From: Patescibacteria group bacterium
GTDB lineage: Bacteria; Patescibacteriota; Minisyncoccia; UBA6257; GWB1-50-10
Assembly (NCBI GenBank): GCA_030018585.1
Contig: JASEHZ010000003.1
Coordinates: 1-39,757 of the forward strand
DNA: 39,757 bases
Direction of reading: 5' to 3'
Below the pieces are notes generated by a model, which was not told the DNA's origin, made no database searches, and saw only the letters and a list, made by a program, of their open reading frames with translations. The translations under genes and the position numbers were made by a program. Position 1 is the first letter of the stretch, and each line of letters begins with the position of its first letter. Positions 7,093 to 16,492 of the stretch are shown here, in pieces.

Positions 7093-7376
7093 CCCCCACA
7101 CCAAATTTATTTTAAACTCTCCACTAATCTCTTTTTGAGTTGTGTAAAGGCTCGACTTCGAAGTTTTGGGCTTGATTCTCTGCGTCGAGCGTCCGACTCC
7201 GCTTTGTACGCCTCGAAACACAACAACTCAAAGGGACAACGAGTTTTTGTGGAAAATATTTTTCCACTATTATGCTCTTGAAGTCGTCGTCTCAAATCAT
7301 TAATCGAACCAATATAAAATTTATCGTCTTTCAAGTTTTTTAAAATATAGACGTAGAACATAATTTGGTGTGGGGG
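7093..7376 (-). mobile_element. Inverted-repeat-bounded GIY-YIG cassette 1
   Basis: acccccacaccaaatt (7092-7107) / aatttggtgtgggggt (7362-7377) perfect; taaa direct repeat at 7089-7092 and 7377-7380; extra arm copy at 7028-7042. Confidence 0.7.
7107..7361 (-). CDS. Small GIY-YIG nuclease (UPF0213/SLX1-like)
   Basis: FYVYIL...FYIG...DLRRRLQEHN...RE motif set. Confidence 0.85.
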   Translation of the reverse strand: MFYVYILKNLKDDKFYIGSINDLRRRLQEHNSGKIFSTKTRCPFELLCFEAYKAESDARRRESSPKLRSRAFTQLKKRLVESLK

Positions 7377-8250: not shown

Positions 8251-8507
8251 CCCGTACGAAACAGGAAACGCTTTAAACGAGATTTAATAAAACGTTTTCC
8301 TCCTCCTGATTTTAAATATAACTCTCTCGACCTTGCATCGTCTTGATCAATACAAGCCTCATAATAAATTAATTTGAACGGACCTCGTCCTTTTGTATAA
8401 GTTGACTTGCCATCATTATGTTCTTTAAAACGCTTCCGTAGATCATTTGTATACCCAGTATATAATTTACCATTTTTTAAACTCTTCAAGATATAAACGT
8501 AAAACAT
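8238..8507 (-). CDS. Small GIY-YIG nuclease (UPF0213/SLX1-like); probable start ATG 8507, upstream ATG 8534 is the duplicated livM start
   Basis: MFYVYILKS...LYTGYTNDLRKRFKEHN...RELYLKSGGG. Confidence 0.88.
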   Translation of the reverse strand: MFYVYILKSLKNGKLYTGYTNDLRKRFKEHNDGKSTYTKGRGPFKLIYYEACIDQDDARSRELYLKSGGGKRFIKSRLKRFLFRTGWNI

Positions 8508-12495: not shown

Positions 12496-12846
12496 TTAAA
12501 TAAATTTAATCATGGCCATTTTTGAACCATCGTGCTTCCTCACTTTTGCTAATTTAACAATAGTCGTATAACCACCTTTCCGATCTTTATAGCGTGGCGC
12601 TAATTCATGATAAACTTTATAAGCCGCTCTTTTTGGCAAATATTTTATAAGCAACCGCAAGGAAGCAATATTTTGTTTTTTGCCATAAGTAATAAAACGC
12701 TCAACTACAGATCTTATTTCTTTAGCTCTGGCTTCGGTTGTGGTCACGCGTTCGTGCTGAATTAAATTATTGGCCAGAATTTTTAAAAAGGACCGCCTTT
12801 TCCCTTTTTTTAAACCGAATTTTCTTCCTTTTTTTAAATGACGCAT
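12496..12846 (-). CDS. rplQ: 50S ribosomal protein L17
   Basis: MRHLKKGRKFG, TTEARAKE, RYKDRKGGYT. Confidence 0.97.
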   Translation of the reverse strand: MRHLKKGRKFGLKKGKRRSFLKILANNLIQHERVTTTEARAKEIRSVVERFITYGKKQNIASLRLLIKYLPKRAAYKVYHELAPRYKDRKGGYTTIVKLAKVRKHDGSKMAMIKFI

Positions 12847-13241
12847 GCTGTTTTTGACTAAAATTTCAAGCCCAATTGCAGCGCAGAAAATTTAGCTGCG
12901 AATTTGAGCACCGAGCACATAAAACATAAAACCAGTGTTCGATATTTCGACTTGTTGATTTGTATTATTAAAATTGATGAATATCATATGTTATCTTTAG
13001 TAATTTATGTGCTCGGTAAGTCACCGCACTATCCCGACTCCGACTGCGGTCGGAAGAGGTTTAGGTGCGCGATCCCGCACCCTCCTGAACCCATAATCTT
13101 ATCATCTCTTTACGGGCTCGGGAAGTGCGGGATCCTCGCACCTTCGACGCTCATTCCATTCGCGGGAAGGTGCGGGAGTTTTGTCTATAAAATTACTTCT
13201 TCGCCAGCTGGCGAATCGTAATTTTATACAAAGCCCTTACT
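12841..13241 (-). promoter_or_regulatory. Candidate structured cis-regulatory RNA upstream of rplQ (copy A)
   Basis: Multiple perfect stems and colinear motif conservation with 15520-15802. Confidence 0.65.
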
Positions 13242-13986
13242 TCTTTTTGCCCTTCTTTTCTTTTTCTTTATGTTTAACAACCTCAACTTTAAGAACTTCT
13301 ATGGCGGAAATTTTATCAAAATGATCTTTCAAAATATTGGCTGATTTATGAACAGCTTCTGAGGGACTAATTGAACCATCGGTTTCCACTTCAAGCTGCA
13401 GACGATTGTAATCAGTTCGATCACCGACGCGCATATTTTCAACAAAAAACGTCACTCTCACAATTGGCGAAAAAATAGCATCGAGCACAACCGTGCCAAC
13501 CGGCAATCGCTCAAGACGACGCGCTTCGGCTGGCACATAACCCAAACCCTTTTCAACTGTTAATTCTGCATCAAAATCAGCGTTTTTCTTTGTTAAGCTC
13601 GCAAGATAAAGTTCTGGATTTACAACTTTAACCAAAGTCGTACTTTGAATATCGGATGCTTTTATTTCTTTTTCGCCTTTCGCTTTTAAAGCTAAAACCT
13701 GCGGCTCTTCGGCAAAAAAATGAAAACGAACTTTTTTTAAATTAAGAGTGAATTCAACAATGTCTTCTATCATTCCCGGCAGAGTCGAAAATTCATGATC
13801 AATATTTTTAATTTTAATTTGAGTAATGGCTGCTCCCGGCAACGACGAAAGCAGTGTCCGACGGAGAGCATTGCCTAAAGTATTGCCATAACCAGTATAA
13901 AGACCTTCAATGTAAAAAATGCCGATATTTTCTTTTTCGGAAATTTTTTTAATTTCGACTGTTTCGCTTAAACGTGAATATTTCAT
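13237..13986 (-). CDS. rpoA: RNA polymerase alpha subunit, lacking the alpha-CTD
   Basis: GYGNTLGNALRRTLLSSLPGAA, HEFSTLPG..ED, VENMRVGDRTDY; ends in Lys-rich tail at 249 aa. Confidence 0.95.
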   Translation of the reverse strand: MKYSRLSETVEIKKISEKENIGIFYIEGLYTGYGNTLGNALRRTLLSSLPGAAITQIKIKNIDHEFSTLPGMIEDIVEFTLNLKKVRFHFFAEEPQVLALKAKGEKEIKASDIQSTTLVKVVNPELYLASLTKKNADFDAELTVEKGLGYVPAEARRLERLPVGTVVLDAIFSPIVRVTFFVENMRVGDRTDYNRLQLEVETDGSISPSEAVHKSANILKDHFDKISAIEVLKVEVVKHKEKEKKGKKK

Positions 13987-14065
13987 ATTTTTACTTGATC
14001 CATACTGTAACTGCGACTTGAAAATTATAACAGTTACATAAATTATTTTTTATCTTTTGAATTTT

Positions 14066-14659
14066 TTAACGGGAATAAAATTCGCCGACTAAATCTATAT
14101 TAAAATTAAAAATATTGTCTCCGCCTCTAATTGCCACGCACTCTCCTTTTAAATTATCCTTGTCTAATTTAAGCCAAGACGGCGGCACATATTGTTTTAA
14201 TCTAAGCCCAATATCCTCAAAAATCTTTAAACCTTTTGACTCGACACGAATGCTAATAACGTCCCCTATCTTAACATAATAAGAAGGAATCGTCACTTTT
14301 CTCTTATTAACCATAATATGGCCGTGGGAAACAAGCTGACGCGCAACTCTAGACGAACGAGCAAAACCAAGCAAAAAAACAACCTGGTCTAAACGGTGTT
14401 CTAAAATTTGAATAATTTTTTCTTTTGGTTTGGTGAATAAACGCCGCATTTGTTTATTGTTTAATCCGAAATAAATCTGAATTTTCTGTTTTTCCTGAAG
14501 CTGACGGCCGTAATCGGAAATAACTCTCCTTTTTTTCCCATGCATACCGGGCTTCTGCGGCCGACGCACCATAACGCACTTTGGCGAATTGCAACGATCT
14601 GCTTTTAAGAAAAGTTTTGTGCCTAAGGATCTTTCTTTTTTTTCTTTAATTCTTTTCAT
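14066..14659 (-). CDS. rpsD: 30S ribosomal protein S4
   Basis: SDYGRQLQEKQK, LEHRLD.VV, ARQLVSHGH, EFYSR. Confidence 0.97.
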   Translation of the reverse strand: MKRIKEKKERSLGTKLFLKADRCNSPKCVMVRRPQKPGMHGKKRRVISDYGRQLQEKQKIQIYFGLNNKQMRRLFTKPKEKIIQILEHRLDQVVFLLGFARSSRVARQLVSHGHIMVNKRKVTIPSYYVKIGDVISIRVESKGLKIFEDIGLRLKQYVPPSWLKLDKDNLKGECVAIRGGDNIFNFNIDLVGEFYSR

Positions 14660-14668
14660 GCTTTTAAA

Positions 14669-15121
14669 TTAAACCCTTCTTACTTTCGGTGGTTTCGGAC
14701 CATTGTGCGGCACGGGCGTTATGTCTTTTATTGATAAAATATTAAAACCTTGCGCTGCCAAAGATCTCACCGCCGAATCGCGCCCCTTGCCAATACCACG
14801 GACAAAAATACGGATATTAAAGGGGCCGGAACGTTTAATTTTTTCCGCAATAGCCTCCGCCACCCTTGAAGCGGCAAAAGGCGTTGCTTTTTTCGGTCCC
14901 GAAAAACCGATTGAACCGGCCGAAAGCCAAGTAATAACATTGCCCTTATCATCGGTTACGGTCATAATAGTATTGTTAAAAGAAGCCTGAATGTAAATAC
15001 AACCATTTTCAATTTTATGCTTAATAACCCGGCTTGTTTTTTCGTTAATCGCCGTTGAAACACTTTTAGAATCATTTATTGTTTCCTCGTTAAATTTTTT
15101 TGCTACTTTTTTCTTTCCCAT
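14669..15121 (-). CDS. rpsK: 30S ribosomal protein S11
   Basis: ASFNNTI, KKATPFAA, DITPVPHNG...PKVRRV. Confidence 0.97.
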   Translation of the reverse strand: MGKKKVAKKFNEETINDSKSVSTAINEKTSRVIKHKIENGCIYIQASFNNTIMTVTDDKGNVITWLSAGSIGFSGPKKATPFAASRVAEAIAEKIKRSGPFNIRIFVRGIGKGRDSAVRSLAAQGFNILSIKDITPVPHNGPKPPKVRRV

Positions 15122-15141
15122 AAATAAATTTGATAATGAGA

Positions 15142-15525
15142 TTATTTAAGCTCTATTTTTCTCTTACCGCTGCCGGCGGTTTTTCTTACATTGCCGCGAA
15201 TCGTCCGAGAATTAGTTTTAGTCCGCTGCCCCCGAACAGGCAAACGACGCAAATGCCTTATGCCACGATAAGCTTTTATATCTTTTAAACGACTAATATT
15301 TCCTTTGATAATTTGTCGAAGCTCGCCTTCAACTTTATAGTTTTTCTCAATCATGGACTGAATTTTACTAACTTCTTCCGGCGTCAAATCTTTTGCCCGC
15401 TTGTTCGGATTAATCTTGGTCTCAGACAAAATACGTCGGGACAATGACCGACCAATACCGTAAAGATACATTAAAGAAATTTCAATTTTTTTGCTATCTG
15501 GTATATTTACTCCAATAATACGCAT
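15142..15525 (-). CDS. rpsM: 30S ribosomal protein S13
   Basis: RIIGVNIP, YRGIRH...LPVRGQRTKTNSRT. Confidence 0.97.
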   Translation of the reverse strand: MRIIGVNIPDSKKIEISLMYLYGIGRSLSRRILSETKINPNKRAKDLTPEEVSKIQSMIEKNYKVEGELRQIIKGNISRLKDIKAYRGIRHLRRLPVRGQRTKTNSRTIRGNVRKTAGSGKRKIELK

Positions 15526-15802
15526 GCCGATTATGTATAAATTTTCGAGTCTGTAGACGATGAAAATTTATCTACAGAATCGAGCACCCCGCCCTTTTGC
15601 TTTCGTGAATTTGAATCCTGAAACAAAGCAAAGCGGAGCCCAGCACTACAACTTCGTTGTAGTGCTGGACGGAGCGATCCGACTTCGTCTTTATTTTTAT
15701 ATGTTTTCATAAATATTGCCATAAAAGGGCGGGGTAAGGTTTGATTAATAAATTTTCTGTTTCGTCAGCTGACGAATTGAAAATTTATATCAAGCCCTTA
15801 CT
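15520..15802 (-). promoter_or_regulatory. Candidate structured cis-regulatory RNA upstream of rpsM (copy B)
   Basis: Multiple perfect stems and colinear motif conservation with 12841-13241. Confidence 0.65.
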
Positions 15803-15916
15803 TTAACCTTGCCTTTGTTTATGTTTGGGATTCTGACAAATAACATAAACGCGCCCTTTGCGGCGAACTGTCTTGCATTTCATACAAATCTTTTTTACTG
15901 ATGATCTTACTTTCAT
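15803..15916 (-). CDS. rpmJ: 50S ribosomal protein L36 (missing from the ORF track, 37 aa)
   Basis: Manual translation [37 protein letters not shown]; CxxC...C...H zinc ribbon. Confidence 0.97.
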
Positions 15917-16042
15917 CCCTCACCCTTTGAGAATCATTAAGAATAATTCTCTTATAAAATATTGACCTTTTGTTATATTGATTATAGTCATAAATAAATT
16001 TGGATAAATAACCCTGGAAAAGAATCCTCAAAGGGTGAGGGA
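15916..16042. mobile_element. Empty MITE-like element abutting the rpmJ start codon
   Basis: atccctcaccctttgag (15915-15931) / ctcaaagggtgagggat (16027-16043) perfect 17 bp; flanks ttca / ttcg. Confidence 0.6.
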
Positions 16043-16202
16043 TTCGTCCCTTTTATCGATTTGGATAAATGCTTAGTATTCATAACATAAATTTTATAAT
16101 TTGGTTTTGGTTGTTTCTAGCGGGTTCATTCCCCACAAAAAATACGAACGCTAAATTGCTTCAAAACAAAATATCCGCAAAAATCTTAATTGTACAATCT
16201 GT

Positions 16203-16424
16203 TTAGAGTCTTCTTACAATTCTGCCTCGCCGCGCATCATAAGGCGTCATTTCAACTATCACCCTATCGCCGGGGATTACCCTGATTCTGTTTAATTTTA
16301 ATTTGCCGCCCAAATGAGCTAAAATTTCCTGATCGCTATTATTTGGCTTAATTTTAAATAATAGACTGGGCAGAGCTTCGAGAACAATGCCTTCTATTCT
16401 TTCTATCTTCGAATCTGGTGCCAT
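16203..16424 (-). CDS. infA: Translation initiation factor IF-1
   Basis: EG.VLEALP, ILAHLGGKL....IRVIPGDRV.VEMTPYD..RGRI. Confidence 0.96.
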   Translation of the reverse strand: MAPDSKIERIEGIVLEALPSLLFKIKPNNSDQEILAHLGGKLKLNRIRVIPGDRVIVEMTPYDARRGRIVRRL

Positions 16425-16464: not shown

Positions 16465-16492
16465 ATTATATAAAACGGGTTAAAAAAGTCAA
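16465..16492 (-). promoter_or_regulatory. Sigma70-type promoter for infA-rpmJ-rpsM operon
   Basis: TTGACT-16 nt-TATAAT on the minus strand. Confidence 0.65.

Follow-up and report, generated by a model that had tools for sequence, protein, structure and literature searches.

In the window analysed here, the whole stretch of 39,757 nt, the genes rpmJ (ribosomal protein L36) and rpsM (S13) lie on the minus strand and are separated by a structured spacer of 277 nt, which extends from the first base after the rpmJ stop codon to the last base before the rpsM start codon. The spacer RNA (15515-15805, minus strand) folds with -106.9 kcal/mol in RNAfold, compared with -58.2 +/- 4.3 kcal/mol in 200 dinucleotide shuffles (z = -11.4). 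Since none of the 200 shuffles was equally stable, the structure of the spacer is real and far beyond chance. The features of this spacer, which we call copy B, and of a second spacer, copy A, are as follows.

15803-15805, minus strand: stop codon TAA of rpmJ (ORF 15803-15916; Pfam Ribosomal_L36, E = 1.7e-20); the element begins 2-3 nt downstream.
15734-15801, minus strand: HP1, the 5′ module, a long irregular hairpin (sequence and fold).
15723-15735, minus strand: 5′ strand of P1, the 13-bp central stem, a perfect complement of 15586-15598.
15599-15722, minus strand: loop of P1, 124 nt, with no recognisable ORF.
15640-15668, minus strand: nested 13-bp hairpin, an ORF-less 'solo' inverted repeat (BLAST matches to both flanks of a cassette on contig C24).
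15586-15598, minus strand: 3′ strand of P1 (sequence and fold).
15523-15587, minus strand: HP3, the 3′ module, a bistable hairpin whose last bases are the rpsM ATG (covariance model R1, 89.4 bits).
Segments of HP3, minus strand: GTGC 15587-15584; a 15582-15578; b 15578-15571; c 15570-15562; b′ 15557-15550; c′ 15546-15538; a′ 15532-15528; ATG 15525-15523.
15142-15525, minus strand: rpsM (Pfam Ribosomal_S13, E = 5.5e-30), with its start codon ATG (15525-15523) within the basal helix of HP3.
12847-13236, minus strand: copy A, in the rpoA-rplQ spacer, with HP1, additional nested GC-rich inverted repeats, a CGAGCAC-type P1 and a diverged HP3.

All stems that an earlier note had proposed for this junction are present when the sequence is read on the minus (gene) strand. 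GTAAGG (15801-15796) pairs with CCTTAC (15739-15734) as the outer helix of HP1, and the ATAAATTTTC/GAAAATTTAT stem and the 16-nt palindrome, both inside 15741-15793, form its middle helix and its apical part; the 13-bp stem (15586-15598 with 15723-15735) is P1. In HP3, an 8-bp stem joins 15550-15557 with 15571-15578, its loop (15562-15571) is fully complementary to 15537-15546, and GTGC-T-CGATT (15587-15578) can pair with AATCG-GCAT (15532-15524) across the rpsM ATG. The placement of the element directly after the rpmJ stop, ending at the rpsM start, agrees with the limits of the spacer. For the 8-bp stem and the loop-tail helix the note had also offered a pseudoknot, which we rejected: by the general rules for H-type pseudoknots, connecting loops of only 0 and 3 nt speak against simultaneous formation, and we infer that the two helices are alternatives. 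End-to-end bridging stems with z < -3 occur in 11 of 146 spacers, a count from crude ORF calls that is indicative only.

HP3 has two folds. State 1 combines a/a′, c/c′ and GTGC/GCAT and reaches -20.0 kcal/mol in copy B; in state 2, a and b pair with b′ plus CTCG (-12.7 kcal/mol), state 1 being the more stable by 7 kcal/mol. State 1 is a 23-bp, near-pure Watson-Crick hairpin in which the AUG and the 10 nt before it are paired, and in state 2 the AUG is free and the alternative hairpin is rich in G·U on the sense strand. Across the family, 93.0% and 94.8% of the cells of state 1 are paired, with 18/23 and 17/23 pairs changed on both sides, compared with 27-52% paired cells in slid controls; for state 2 the values are 88.7%, with 8/13 pairs changed on both sides, and 21-43% in slid controls. 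Because the copies are akin to one another, shuffle tests and p-values overstate the support. Segments c and c′ and the apical TCG are nearly invariant, and it is the helices a, a′ and b, b′ that covary. Folding was also followed along the molecule: RNAs truncated before c′ adopt the state 2 fold (-5 to -20 kcal/mol), and full-length HP3 RNAs have -14 to -28.5 kcal/mol, with state 2 still the minimum-energy fold in 5 of 33.

The two states differ in what they tell about the level at which they are kept. The sense strand favours the stability of state 2 in 84 of 107 copies, and the folds hold 164 versus 43 G·U pairs. Unpaired cells of state 2 are, at the same time, as frequent as wobble cells (53 versus 52, of 468), so that some of its pairing could come from a decaying second copy of the 3′ arm. 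Outside the AUG pair, state 1 contains 3 G·U versus ~19 A·C cells in 80 copies, and its antisense strand folds slightly better than the sense strand; thus state 1 has no RNA-specific signature and could be kept solely as DNA. A bistable cis-regulatory RNA is expected to have two folds that exclude each other and are both preserved by compensatory changes, and because this is seen across the family, an effect of HP3 on rpsM translation is plausible. Of the translational switch proposed in the earlier note, therefore, the part that stands is a 3′ end that can occlude the rpsM start, with a competing fold; its designation as an operator specific to S4 and the alpha operon is not supported.

Two other roles of this region were considered and rejected. 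As a promoter, HP3 offers a weak TCTACA-16-CATAAT match only (9/12), which would put the first transcribed base on or within the ATG and whose -35 region shows the covariation of a stem. Coupling of HP1 and HP3 by strand exchange was assessed in 18 composite elements by the complementarity of the HP1 3′ arm with the cognate or a non-cognate HP3 5′ arm, which was no greater for cognate than for non-cognate pairs (-7.7 versus -7.3 kcal/mol, permutation p = 0.24); in copy B these two arms share a perfect 10-nt complement.

HP3 belongs to a large repeat family. Of 151 genomes of the order, 44 contain it by model R1, a single genome having as many as 28 copies (~9 in the source genome, of 0.68 Mb), and of 150 genomes elsewhere in the phylum none does; the motif has hundreds of copies and, in the genomes sampled, is restricted to one order, in which its distribution per family is patchy (0/7 to 5/5). 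No Rfam family matches HP3. Within the source genome, modules of copy B recur before L6-, GroES-, NusA-, L16-, L25-, FtsE- and L17-like genes (named by eye from the N-termini, except L17, which has a Pfam match). Copy A belongs to the same family: the two copies share the 5′ hairpin (70% identity over 88 nt) and the diverged 3′ module of copy A is still recognised by R1 (62 bits at 12835-12923). Over larger distances, the 64-nt 3′ module stands with 98% identity in front of S10-like and GroES-like genes, in genomes from a different family and a different genus, whose S13 proteins are 66% and 75% identical, respectively, to that of the source genome. Between the two congeneric genomes, the element subtype differs at the rpsH-rplF junction, one and the same subtype stands at different junctions, and the set of filled junctions is not identical. 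The rpmJ-rpsM junction itself is only 2-54 nt long in 25 of 28 relatives, including a genome of the same genus with 18 nt, where S13 is 90% identical; hence the element arrived or was exchanged recently.

The position of HP3 relative to genes is strict. An ATG-led ORF begins at -6 to +2 nt from the canonical position in 73 of 80 copies from 24 genomes (52 at 0, 12 at -5, 1 at -6, 2 at +1 and 6 at +2), and in all 73 HP3 lies in sense on the start codon. In genes beginning with ATGGCA the register is shifted by 5 nt and the start codon still lies in or next to the basal helix; in this -5 class the 5′ arm of HP3 is adapted to pair with the start codon. By Pfam, the 73 ORFs span at least 40 families, with ribosomal proteins accounting for 25 and rpsD itself found in two genomes, and further include pilins, transporters and 12 ORFs with no Pfam match. 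HP1 has the corresponding relation to the upstream gene: the TAA of TAA(A)GGGCTT ends the upstream frame in 17 of the 21 copies inspected, a frame being counted if it stayed open for 140 codons or more or up to the edge of the locus. In the source genome HP1 recurs at the rpoA stop (13178-13239), at C26 ~10111 and at C24:6718, and no terminator is predicted in HP1 on the sense strand. HP1 and HP3 are related to each other, as 15536-15565 and 15760-15789 form a 30-nt inverted repeat (73% complementary) and R1 matches HP1 on the opposite strand. Copy B thus has terminal inverted repeats of the kind that characterises MITEs; a target-site duplication or defined termini were found for none of the HP1-P1-HP3 elements, copy B included. 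Elsewhere, simple GIY-YIG cassettes or ORF-less stem cassettes are accompanied by 5-6 nt direct repeats of the start-codon region.

The content of the P1 loop connects this family with a nuclease gene. In 59 of 80 HP3 copies the P1 position is taken by a perfect stem, 7 bp or longer and mostly 10 bp, and in full-length elements this stem encloses a standalone GIY-YIG (UPF0213/Slx1-like) gene of 70-85 aa. On contig C1 of the source genome, HP1 is followed by an 18-bp P1 around a 75-aa GIY-YIG ORF (Pfam PF01541; nearest solved structures the UPF0213 proteins 1ZG2 and 1YWL, E = 1e-11 and 1e-3), by HP3 and by a NusA-like gene, and the order HP1-P1[GIY-YIG]-HP3 recurs in at least 12 other genomes. 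The family is therefore multi-copy with an ORF-bearing relative that shares the same ends, again as in MITEs. All five GIY-YIG ORFs of the source genome are bracketed by inverted repeats, which are perfect over 15-18 bp in four and consist of two adjacent 9-bp blocks in the fifth (C30). Among 33 GIY-YIG loci, HP3 flanks the ORF at 7, those of the closest homologues; conversely, 9 of 80 HP3 copies have the ORF in the P1 loop and 71 have none within 300 nt upstream. In the order sample, 31 genomes have both HP3 and GIY-YIG, 13 HP3 only, 33 GIY-YIG only and 74 neither (odds ratio 5.3, from relatives that are not independent); in the 13 of 44 HP3-positive genomes for which this query detected no GIY-YIG homologue, some have 10-23 HP3 copies. 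The variety of insertion junctions speaks against simple homing to a single site.

Copy B itself contains no intact nuclease ORF and no residual similarity to one: decayed GIY-YIG coding sequence was considered for the spacers of copies B and A, C26 and infA-rpmJ, and was rejected, as tblastn gave E > 0.05 throughout. A 63-aa ORF at 15531-15722 has no Pfam match. The AT-rich stretch 15690-15726 of the loop has 97% identity with the bases immediately preceding an S18-like gene on contig C41, and the nested hairpin is of a second GIY-YIG cassette type, which is intact at C24:1236-1469 and the inverted repeat of which differs there by one compensated pair.

Taken together, copy B is very probably a composite, non-autonomous member of a family of palindromic intergenic elements that, in the genomes sampled, is confined to the order, one of small-genome bacteria, the source genome probably belonging to the candidate phyla radiation by a lead from cluster labels (Wolfeibacteriota/Minisyncoccota), and we interpret copy B as a decayed cassette copy of a family that appears to be mobile. 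The family plan is HP1 on the upstream stop codon, P1 as a perfect stem, and HP3 with its base containing or abutting the downstream start codon. The full explanation, a GIY-YIG-associated palindromic element with a bistable start-site hairpin, is in our view slightly more likely than not. In the proposed mechanism, the element would be transcribed through as part of the operon mRNA. State 1, with its paired AUG, would be the more stable resting fold in which translation is off; in state 2, translation would be on, as the 5′ arm would pair with a decoy segment in the apical region and leave the AUG and ~25 A/U-rich nt unpaired after a stable hairpin. State 2 would form first during transcription and may give ribosomes access despite few Shine-Dalgarno motifs: GGAG/GAGG was found upstream of 66 of 729 crude gene starts versus 28 of 729 control windows, and for the anti-Shine-Dalgarno the assembly contains no 16S rRNA. 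Because state 1 is favoured by 7 kcal/mol in copy B, the 'on' state would need kinetics or a helper. In such a genome the bistable 3′ hairpin probably sets rpsM translation. We put forward tentatively, as a possibility close to even, that HP3 is a start-site adaptor carried by the element, which by its two exclusive folds sustains or gates the synthesis of S13, with no sensing of S4.

A further step is possible, although we regard it as doubtful: HP1-P1-HP3 may be an undescribed class of mobile element, in which a minimal Slx1-like nuclease gene would lie in the loop of a perfect inverted repeat, between a stop-embedding and a start-embedding hairpin, and the nuclease would act on the cruciform or hairpin DNA of its own element. 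Such an element would spread to stop-start junctions in essential operons, where it would persist by virtue of the bistable HP3, which would restore or gate translation of the next cistron. A search of main texts found no description of such elements, and an account may exist in print.

The sequence data also bear on other explanations. One is a global cis-regulatory RNA owned by the host, in which HP3, together with P1, would be a bistable leader, native to the host or domesticated, that responds to a protein, a ligand or temperature and coordinates translation of housekeeping genes, with the GIY-YIG cassettes parasitising P1. The near-invariant c, c′ and apical TCG beside covarying helices, the start codon held in or next to the basal helix even with a 5-nt register shift, and the enrichment of ribosomal-protein genes all agree with such a leader, as do the 13 HP3-positive genomes with no detectable GIY-YIG homologue and the 71 copies with no such ORF upstream. 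However, orthologous junctions are mostly empty in relatives, the distribution among families is patchy, congeneric genomes differ in filled junctions and subtype, and near-identical modules stand before non-orthologous genes in diverged genomes; moreover, the pilins, transporters and Pfam-less ORFs downstream form no coherent regulon, and a plain hairpin of this kind appears to offer no obvious ligand pocket. We consider this explanation unlikely.

A repeat that acts at the DNA level only (REP/BIME/REPIN- or MITE-like) is of similarly low probability. The hairpins or cruciforms would then serve nuclease recognition, recombination or replication, and the RNA folds and codon positions would be by-products of insertion into spacers of 2-20 nt, which are natively so short that any insert nearly touches a stop and a start codon. 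The helices of state 1 and P1, near-perfectly Watson-Crick with no excess of wobble, are in line with this, and so are the resemblance of HP1 to the reverse complement of HP3, with R1 matching it on the opposite strand, and a GTAG-like tetranucleotide before the c palindrome, as in REPs. What such a repeat leaves unaccounted for is the strict polarity (73/73 HP3 in sense on the start codon and HP1 on the stop codon in 17/21), the sense-strand G·U enrichment and covariation of state 2, and the adaptation of the 5′ arm to the start codon in the -5 class. Membership in the REP/REPIN-RAYT group in particular was rejected, as the cognate Y1 (RAYT) transposase gene (PF01797) was not found in the source genome, which is 99.5% complete, and 6 of 14 control genomes were positive.

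Intercistronic processing has a very low probability. At phage T7 R sites, RNase III cuts polycistronic mRNA; similarly, HP1 and HP3 would be cut by RNase III or another endonuclease, so that the upstream message would keep a hairpin protecting its 3′ end and rpsM would have a 5′ end with a short leader or none. The hairpins are indeed irregular duplexes of 20-27 bp exactly between cistrons, the base of a helix coincides with the AUG, and an RNase III gene is present, but both the conserved alternative hairpin and the GIY-YIG association are left unexplained.

The reading that the earlier note had preferred, an S4-responsive translational operator like the E. coli rpsM pseudoknot, now has next to no probability: it has in its favour the same position at the rpsM start, upstream of rpsK-rpsD-rpoA, and a start codon within a structure with alternative folds, but the element is missing at the junction in 25 of 28 relatives, the same genus included, and the note had itself named lack of conservation in related genomes among what would speak against it; this module is found ahead of dozens of unrelated genes (in two genomes ahead of rpsD itself), copy A, built of the same modules, lies before rplQ, a GIY-YIG nuclease gene is present in full-length relatives, and the Rfam comparison that the note had called for gave no match at the gathering threshold in the window and, with E up to 10 in 12700-16400, microRNA-type noise only, with neither Alpha_RBS nor an S4 leader among it.

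A false lead is thereby removed, as copy B is not a new S4 operator, and the preferred explanation, a GIY-YIG-associated element with a start-site hairpin, has consequences of its own. HP3 is a large structured motif, restricted to one order in the genomes sampled, in which both exclusive folds have clear covariation and to which no Rfam family corresponds. In a genome of 0.68 Mb, a selfish insertion would be able to occupy essential ribosomal-protein operons, with bracketing stems that place the stop and start codons at hairpin bases, and such codon-bracketing inserts make cistron initiation testable in bacteria with few Shine-Dalgarno motifs. The link of HP3 to standalone UPF0213/Slx1-like genes suggests that at least some of these are selfish cassettes with ORF-less derivatives.

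Among known systems, the S4 operator of the E. coli alpha operon (Alpha_RBS, a nested pseudoknot) resembles HP3 in involving the rpsM start codon and competing conformers of the initiation region. It differs in that sequence and structure do not match, HP3 being a bistable hairpin in a repeat element, and in that HP3 is not conserved at this junction and serves many unrelated genes. Kinetically controlled occlusion of a start site is known from the phage MS2 maturation gene and from hok mRNA; the likeness would be a start that is closed at equilibrium and open only in a transient or alternative fold, whereas HP3 is a portable module before many genes. The bacterial MITEs Correia/CREE, ERIC and BOX are transcribed together with the genes beside them, whose expression they can change. 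They share with copy B that they are short, structured, modular intergenic repeats with no ORF of their own; here, by contrast, no transposase-type partner or target-site duplication was found, the partner is a minimal Slx1-like nuclease, of a kind not known as a transposase, and the element extends exactly from stop to start.

REP/BIME/REPIN sequences are likewise multi-copy extragenic palindromes in inverted pairs, co-transcribed as copy B presumably is, and the REP tag, a GTAG-like tetranucleotide ahead of the palindrome as given in PMC3733652, has a counterpart before c. The family described here differs in its GIY-YIG nuclease partner, with no Y1/RAYT gene found, in its tens rather than hundreds of copies, and in its fixed sense orientation, fused to stop and start codons. 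T-even phage Seg proteins are free-standing GIY-YIG homing endonucleases (review PMC2988022), and their genes are similar in lying between genes of conserved clusters and in being patchy among relatives; in contrast, the proteins here are catalytic domains of 70-85 aa with no DNA-binding domain, and their genes are framed by perfect inverted repeats with HP1 and HP3, with many ORF-less derivatives at many junctions. The closest proteins are the UPF0213/Slx1-like ones, by the sequence matches to PF01541, 1ZG2 and 1YWL. In Dunin-Horkawicz 2006 (PMC1564403), standalone Slx1-like GIY-YIG proteins are described as a vertically inherited minimal nuclease, a description that counts against the selfish-cassette reading; the cassettes bracketed by inverted repeats here differ from it and suggest selfish behaviour.

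Copy B, the structured rpmJ-rpsM spacer, and copy A, the related structured spacer between rpoA and rplQ, lie in the following order on the minus strand.

16203-16424, minus strand, infA (Pfam IF-1)
15803-15916, minus strand, rpmJ (Pfam L36)
15526-15802, minus strand, copy B spacer, 277 nt, between rpmJ and rpsM
15142-15525, minus strand, rpsM (Pfam S13)
after rpsM in gene order, minus strand, rpsK and rpsD (Pfam S11 and S4)
13237-13986, minus strand, rpoA (Pfam RpoA)
12847-13236, minus strand, copy A spacer, 390 nt, between rpoA and rplQ
after copy A, minus strand, rplQ (Pfam L17)

Pfam gave no hit to the ORFs that can be drawn within either spacer. Upstream of infA lies the region's best sigma-70-like promoter match (16465-16492, minus strand, TTGACT-16-TATAAT, 11/12), from which, judged by sequence, a transcript reading through both spacers could plausibly start. 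RpoA has 249 aa, with N-terminal and insert domains only; the alpha C-terminal domain (PF03118) was found at 0 places in the own genome (0.68 Mb, 37.5% G+C, rated 99.5% complete, with the window as contig C25) and in 2 of 21 order genomes searched, compared with 10/10 bacterial controls. Loss of this domain is lineage-wide, and copy A is not its cause.

The copy B spacer RNA folds at −106.9 kcal/mol compared with −58.2 ± 4.3 in shuffles (z = −11.4), and the fold is made of three adjoining domains with hardly any linkers.

15801-15734, minus strand, HP1, the 5′ hairpin module
15735-15723 with 15598-15586, minus strand, P1, a central perfect 13-bp stem enclosing 124 nt
15587-15523, minus strand, HP3, the 3′ hairpin module, with base GTGC-T-CGATT / AATCG-GCAT

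All stems that had been listed by the earlier note were recovered at their coordinates, and the pairing it drew over the rpsM start is the base of HP3 in the computed fold; thus, the AT of the rpsM ATG falls within a helix.

Parts of copy B recur separately in the own genome (BLAST; genes named by eye from N-terminal translations): its last 60 nt stand upstream of an L6-like gene (95% identity), a GroES-like gene and a NusA-like gene, its first 55 nt follow rpoA and an S8-like gene, and an AT-rich piece from its interior precedes an S18-like gene. Matches were found in 22 of 61 genomes (60 relatives and the own genome); G040, of another family, has the 64-nt 3′ module at 98% identity ahead of an S10-like gene, and G019, of another genus, has it at 98% identity ahead of a GroES-like gene. 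The S13 proteins of G040 and G019 are just 66% and 75% identical to that of the window. R1, a covariance model trained on 33 copies of the 3′ module, detected ∼9 copies of the HP3 type in the own genome and matches in 44 of 151 sampled genomes of the order, with at most 28 per genome and a patchy distribution by family (0/7 to 5/5), and in 0 of 150 sampled genomes from the rest of the phylum. In G001, of the same genus, seven HP3 copies were found at E up to 0.01, and its rpsH-rplF junction carries a subtype different from that of the own genome; this G001 subtype matches the one that stands before an L16-like gene in the own genome. Such junction and subtype differences indicate that filled and empty sites, and subtypes, turn over within the genus. 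A full-text search of the literature, with supplementary tables outside its scope, found no description of such elements.

The 80 best-scoring HP3 copies, from 24 genomes, were fetched, and a downstream ORF was called when ATG-led and at least 60 codons long or open to the locus end. Such an ORF begins −6 to +2 from the model's canonical ATG in 73 of the 80 copies (52 at 0, 12 at −5, 1 at −6, 2 at +1 and 6 at +2); in the −5 class the gene starts ATGGCA, and its ATG lies inside the HP3 3′ arm, pairing with CAT of the 5′ arm. Among the seven copies without a called ORF, two are followed by a short frame that looks L35-like by eye, and a contig end cuts another. High-scoring copies at loci L170 (G167:C7:61564-62398), L151, L161 and L175 have no obvious ORF after them, and one precedes a GC-rich hairpin-like sequence. 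HP1 mirrors HP3: an upstream reading frame, counted if it stays open for 140 codons or more or as far as the locus edge, is closed by the TAA of TAA(A)GGGCTT in 17 of 21 HP1 copies.

Pfam named 61 of the 73 products downstream of HP3, and 12 had no match. Ribosomal proteins account for 25 of 73 (L6, L10, L11, L13, L14, L18, L22, L24, L27, S3, S4, S7, S8, S10, S18, S19 and S20), and the others include RpoA, RpoD, NusB, SSB, DnaB, SecA, a ClpB-type protein, Fpg, TrmD, aminoacyl-tRNA synthetase parts, pilus and type II secretion proteins, and transporters. This set is not the regulon of one r-protein.

HP3 has two conserved folds, formed by segments a, b and c on the 5′ side and b′, c′ and a′ on the 3′ side. 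State 1 is a long hairpin (GTGC/GCAT, a/a′ and c/c′); when 33 copies are aligned with MAFFT, 93.0% of its cells are paired (27-43% in slid controls), both sides changed in 18 of 23 pairs, and it scores 0.379 for covariation, compared with 0.118 for shuffles, none of which (0/500) reached its value, although such fold and covariation statistics overstate independence since the copies are related. A second alignment, of 37 copies, gave 94.8% and 17 of 23 pairs. In state 2, the 5′ arm (a + b) pairs with b′ and an apical decoy of a′, with 88.7% of cells paired (slid controls, 21-43%) and both sides changed in 8 of 13 pairs. The two states are mutually exclusive because both use the same 5′ arm. 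RNAs truncated before c′ adopt state 2, with energies of −5 to −20 kcal/mol, and full-length HP3 RNAs reach −14 to −28.5 kcal/mol, 5 of 33 still having state 2 as their minimum-energy fold; copy B folds at −12.7 (cut before c′, state 2) and −20.0 kcal/mol (full-length).

The Shine–Dalgarno signal of the own genome is very weak: of 729 crude gene starts, 66 have GGAG/GAGG in −20..−4, compared with 28 of 729 internal controls, upstream regions are A/T-rich with G enrichment absent, and the 16S rRNA gene is absent from the assembly, so that the anti-SD sequence is unreadable there. In such a genome a start region that is A/U-rich and unstructured is probably required for initiation, or else re-initiation over a short distance past the upstream stop. 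A 277-nt insert with the AUG buried in its terminal palindrome would silence rpsM unless opened, and state 2, which could form first during transcription, would open this AUG. Hence, we infer that HP3 is a start-site adaptor or gate carried by the element. What the analysis shows, as distinct from this reading, is the family itself, its polarity, the joining of its ends to a stop and a start codon, the pair of conserved folds and the tie to the nuclease.

One rival to the adaptor reading is a global regulatory leader owned by the host. Another is a repeat acting as DNA only. In its favour, state 1 is nearly all Watson–Crick, with 1714 such cells against about 19 A·C and, leaving out the AUG pair, 3 G·U; state 1 is slightly more stable on the antisense than on the sense strand, and it may be a palindrome kept at the DNA level. 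Against this rival, state 2 is read as bearing an RNA-level signature, the sense strand being more stable in 84 of 107 copies, with 164 vs 43 G·U pairs in the folds. Punctuation of transcripts by RNase III is a further rival, and the rnc gene is present. The S4 operator, to which the earlier note's analogy with the E. coli alpha-operon pseudoknot pointed, is not upheld, because HP3 precedes many unrelated genes, Rfam gave no match (at gathering threshold in the window, or at E up to 10 in 12700-16400) and a copy B-type spacer is missing from this junction in 25 of 28 relatives.

S13 was located in 59 of 61 genomes (relatives and own), and in the 28 relatives' loci holding both genes the L36-S13 spacer is 2-54 nt in 25, where a copy B-type spacer is missing, and 135-185 nt in just three, among which G030 has a variant of the same element frame. 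In G001, with an S13 90% identical, the spacer (locus L050) is 18 nt. This ‘empty’ spacer closely resembles the last 18 nt of the common HP3 subtype, and it may be the deletion footprint of an earlier element, not a virgin site.

Other cassettes of the own genome have a simpler form, one stem whose 5′ arm adjoins the stop codon and whose 3′ arm ends in ATG, and would be a simpler version of the same start-codon logic. One is the infA-rpmJ spacer (15917-16202, minus strand, 286 nt; 2-202 nt at this junction in relatives), with a terminal stem of ∼19 bp (16037-16019 with 15935-15917) whose 3′ arm GGGTGAGGG leads directly into the rpmJ ATG; spacers without an ORF, 133-154 nt long, are enclosed by the same stem type at C4:10972, C42:15182 and C26:11485. 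An ORF-less family of 120-136 nt spacers (C40:24095, C19:7942, C8:3193, C40:29484, C28:2394 and C26:13719) has a closing stem of ∼15 bp of the ATCCCGTTAGAAGCA type, placed likewise after the stop codon and ending in ATG, with direct repeats ATGAA(T) at the flanks of several members; the stem is like the inverted repeat around the GIY-YIG ORF at 8271-8507.

The own genome has five GIY-YIG ORFs, each within its own inverted repeat; four of these repeats are perfect over 15-18 bp, and the remaining one, on C30, is made of two 9-bp blocks side by side. Two of the ORFs, of 79-81 aa (PF01541), are sited in the window between successive membrane-protein genes, each in a perfect 15-16 bp inverted repeat.

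7119-7361, minus strand, GIY-YIG ORF
8271-8507, minus strand, GIY-YIG ORF

At the latter, ATGGA, with which the downstream gene begins, is duplicated just upstream of the cassette. The C30 cassette (C30:21883-22125) lies directly 5′ of an L7/L12-like ORF (by eye), a ribosomal-protein junction with no HP1 or HP3. On contig C1, an HP1-like hairpin is followed by an 18-bp P1 around a 75-aa GIY-YIG ORF (PF01541), HP3 and the NusA-like gene; this P1 sequence type is shared by copy A and by the rpsH-rplF copy, both of which lack an ORF, and the inverted repeat of the C24 cassette equals the 13-bp hairpin 15640-15668 within copy B save one compensated pair. In relatives, HP3 and/or HP1 adjoin the ORF in 7 of 33 GIY-YIG loci, those of the closest homologues of the C1 protein. 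A perfect P1 partner lies at most 300 nt away in 59 of the 80 HP3 copies (loops 4-275 nt, commonest 70-90 nt), with a GIY-YIG ORF inside a 215-275 nt loop in 9 and a recognisable HP1 in 17. In the order sample, GIY-YIG homologues and HP3 tend to occur together: 31 genomes have both, 13 HP3 only, 33 GIY-YIG only and 74 neither. By this comparison copy B is an ORF-less, composite member of the family; a coding remnant of GIY-YIG was not detectable in it.

As to mobility, no RAYT was found in the own genome, and copy B has no clear target duplication. The nuclease of the cassettes is without a DNA-binding domain; a paralogue of the C1 ORF matches the solved UPF0213 proteins 1ZG2 and 1YWL, and Dunin-Horkawicz et al. 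(2006, PMC1564403) place UPF0213 proteins among the Slx1-like minimal nucleases of bacteria.
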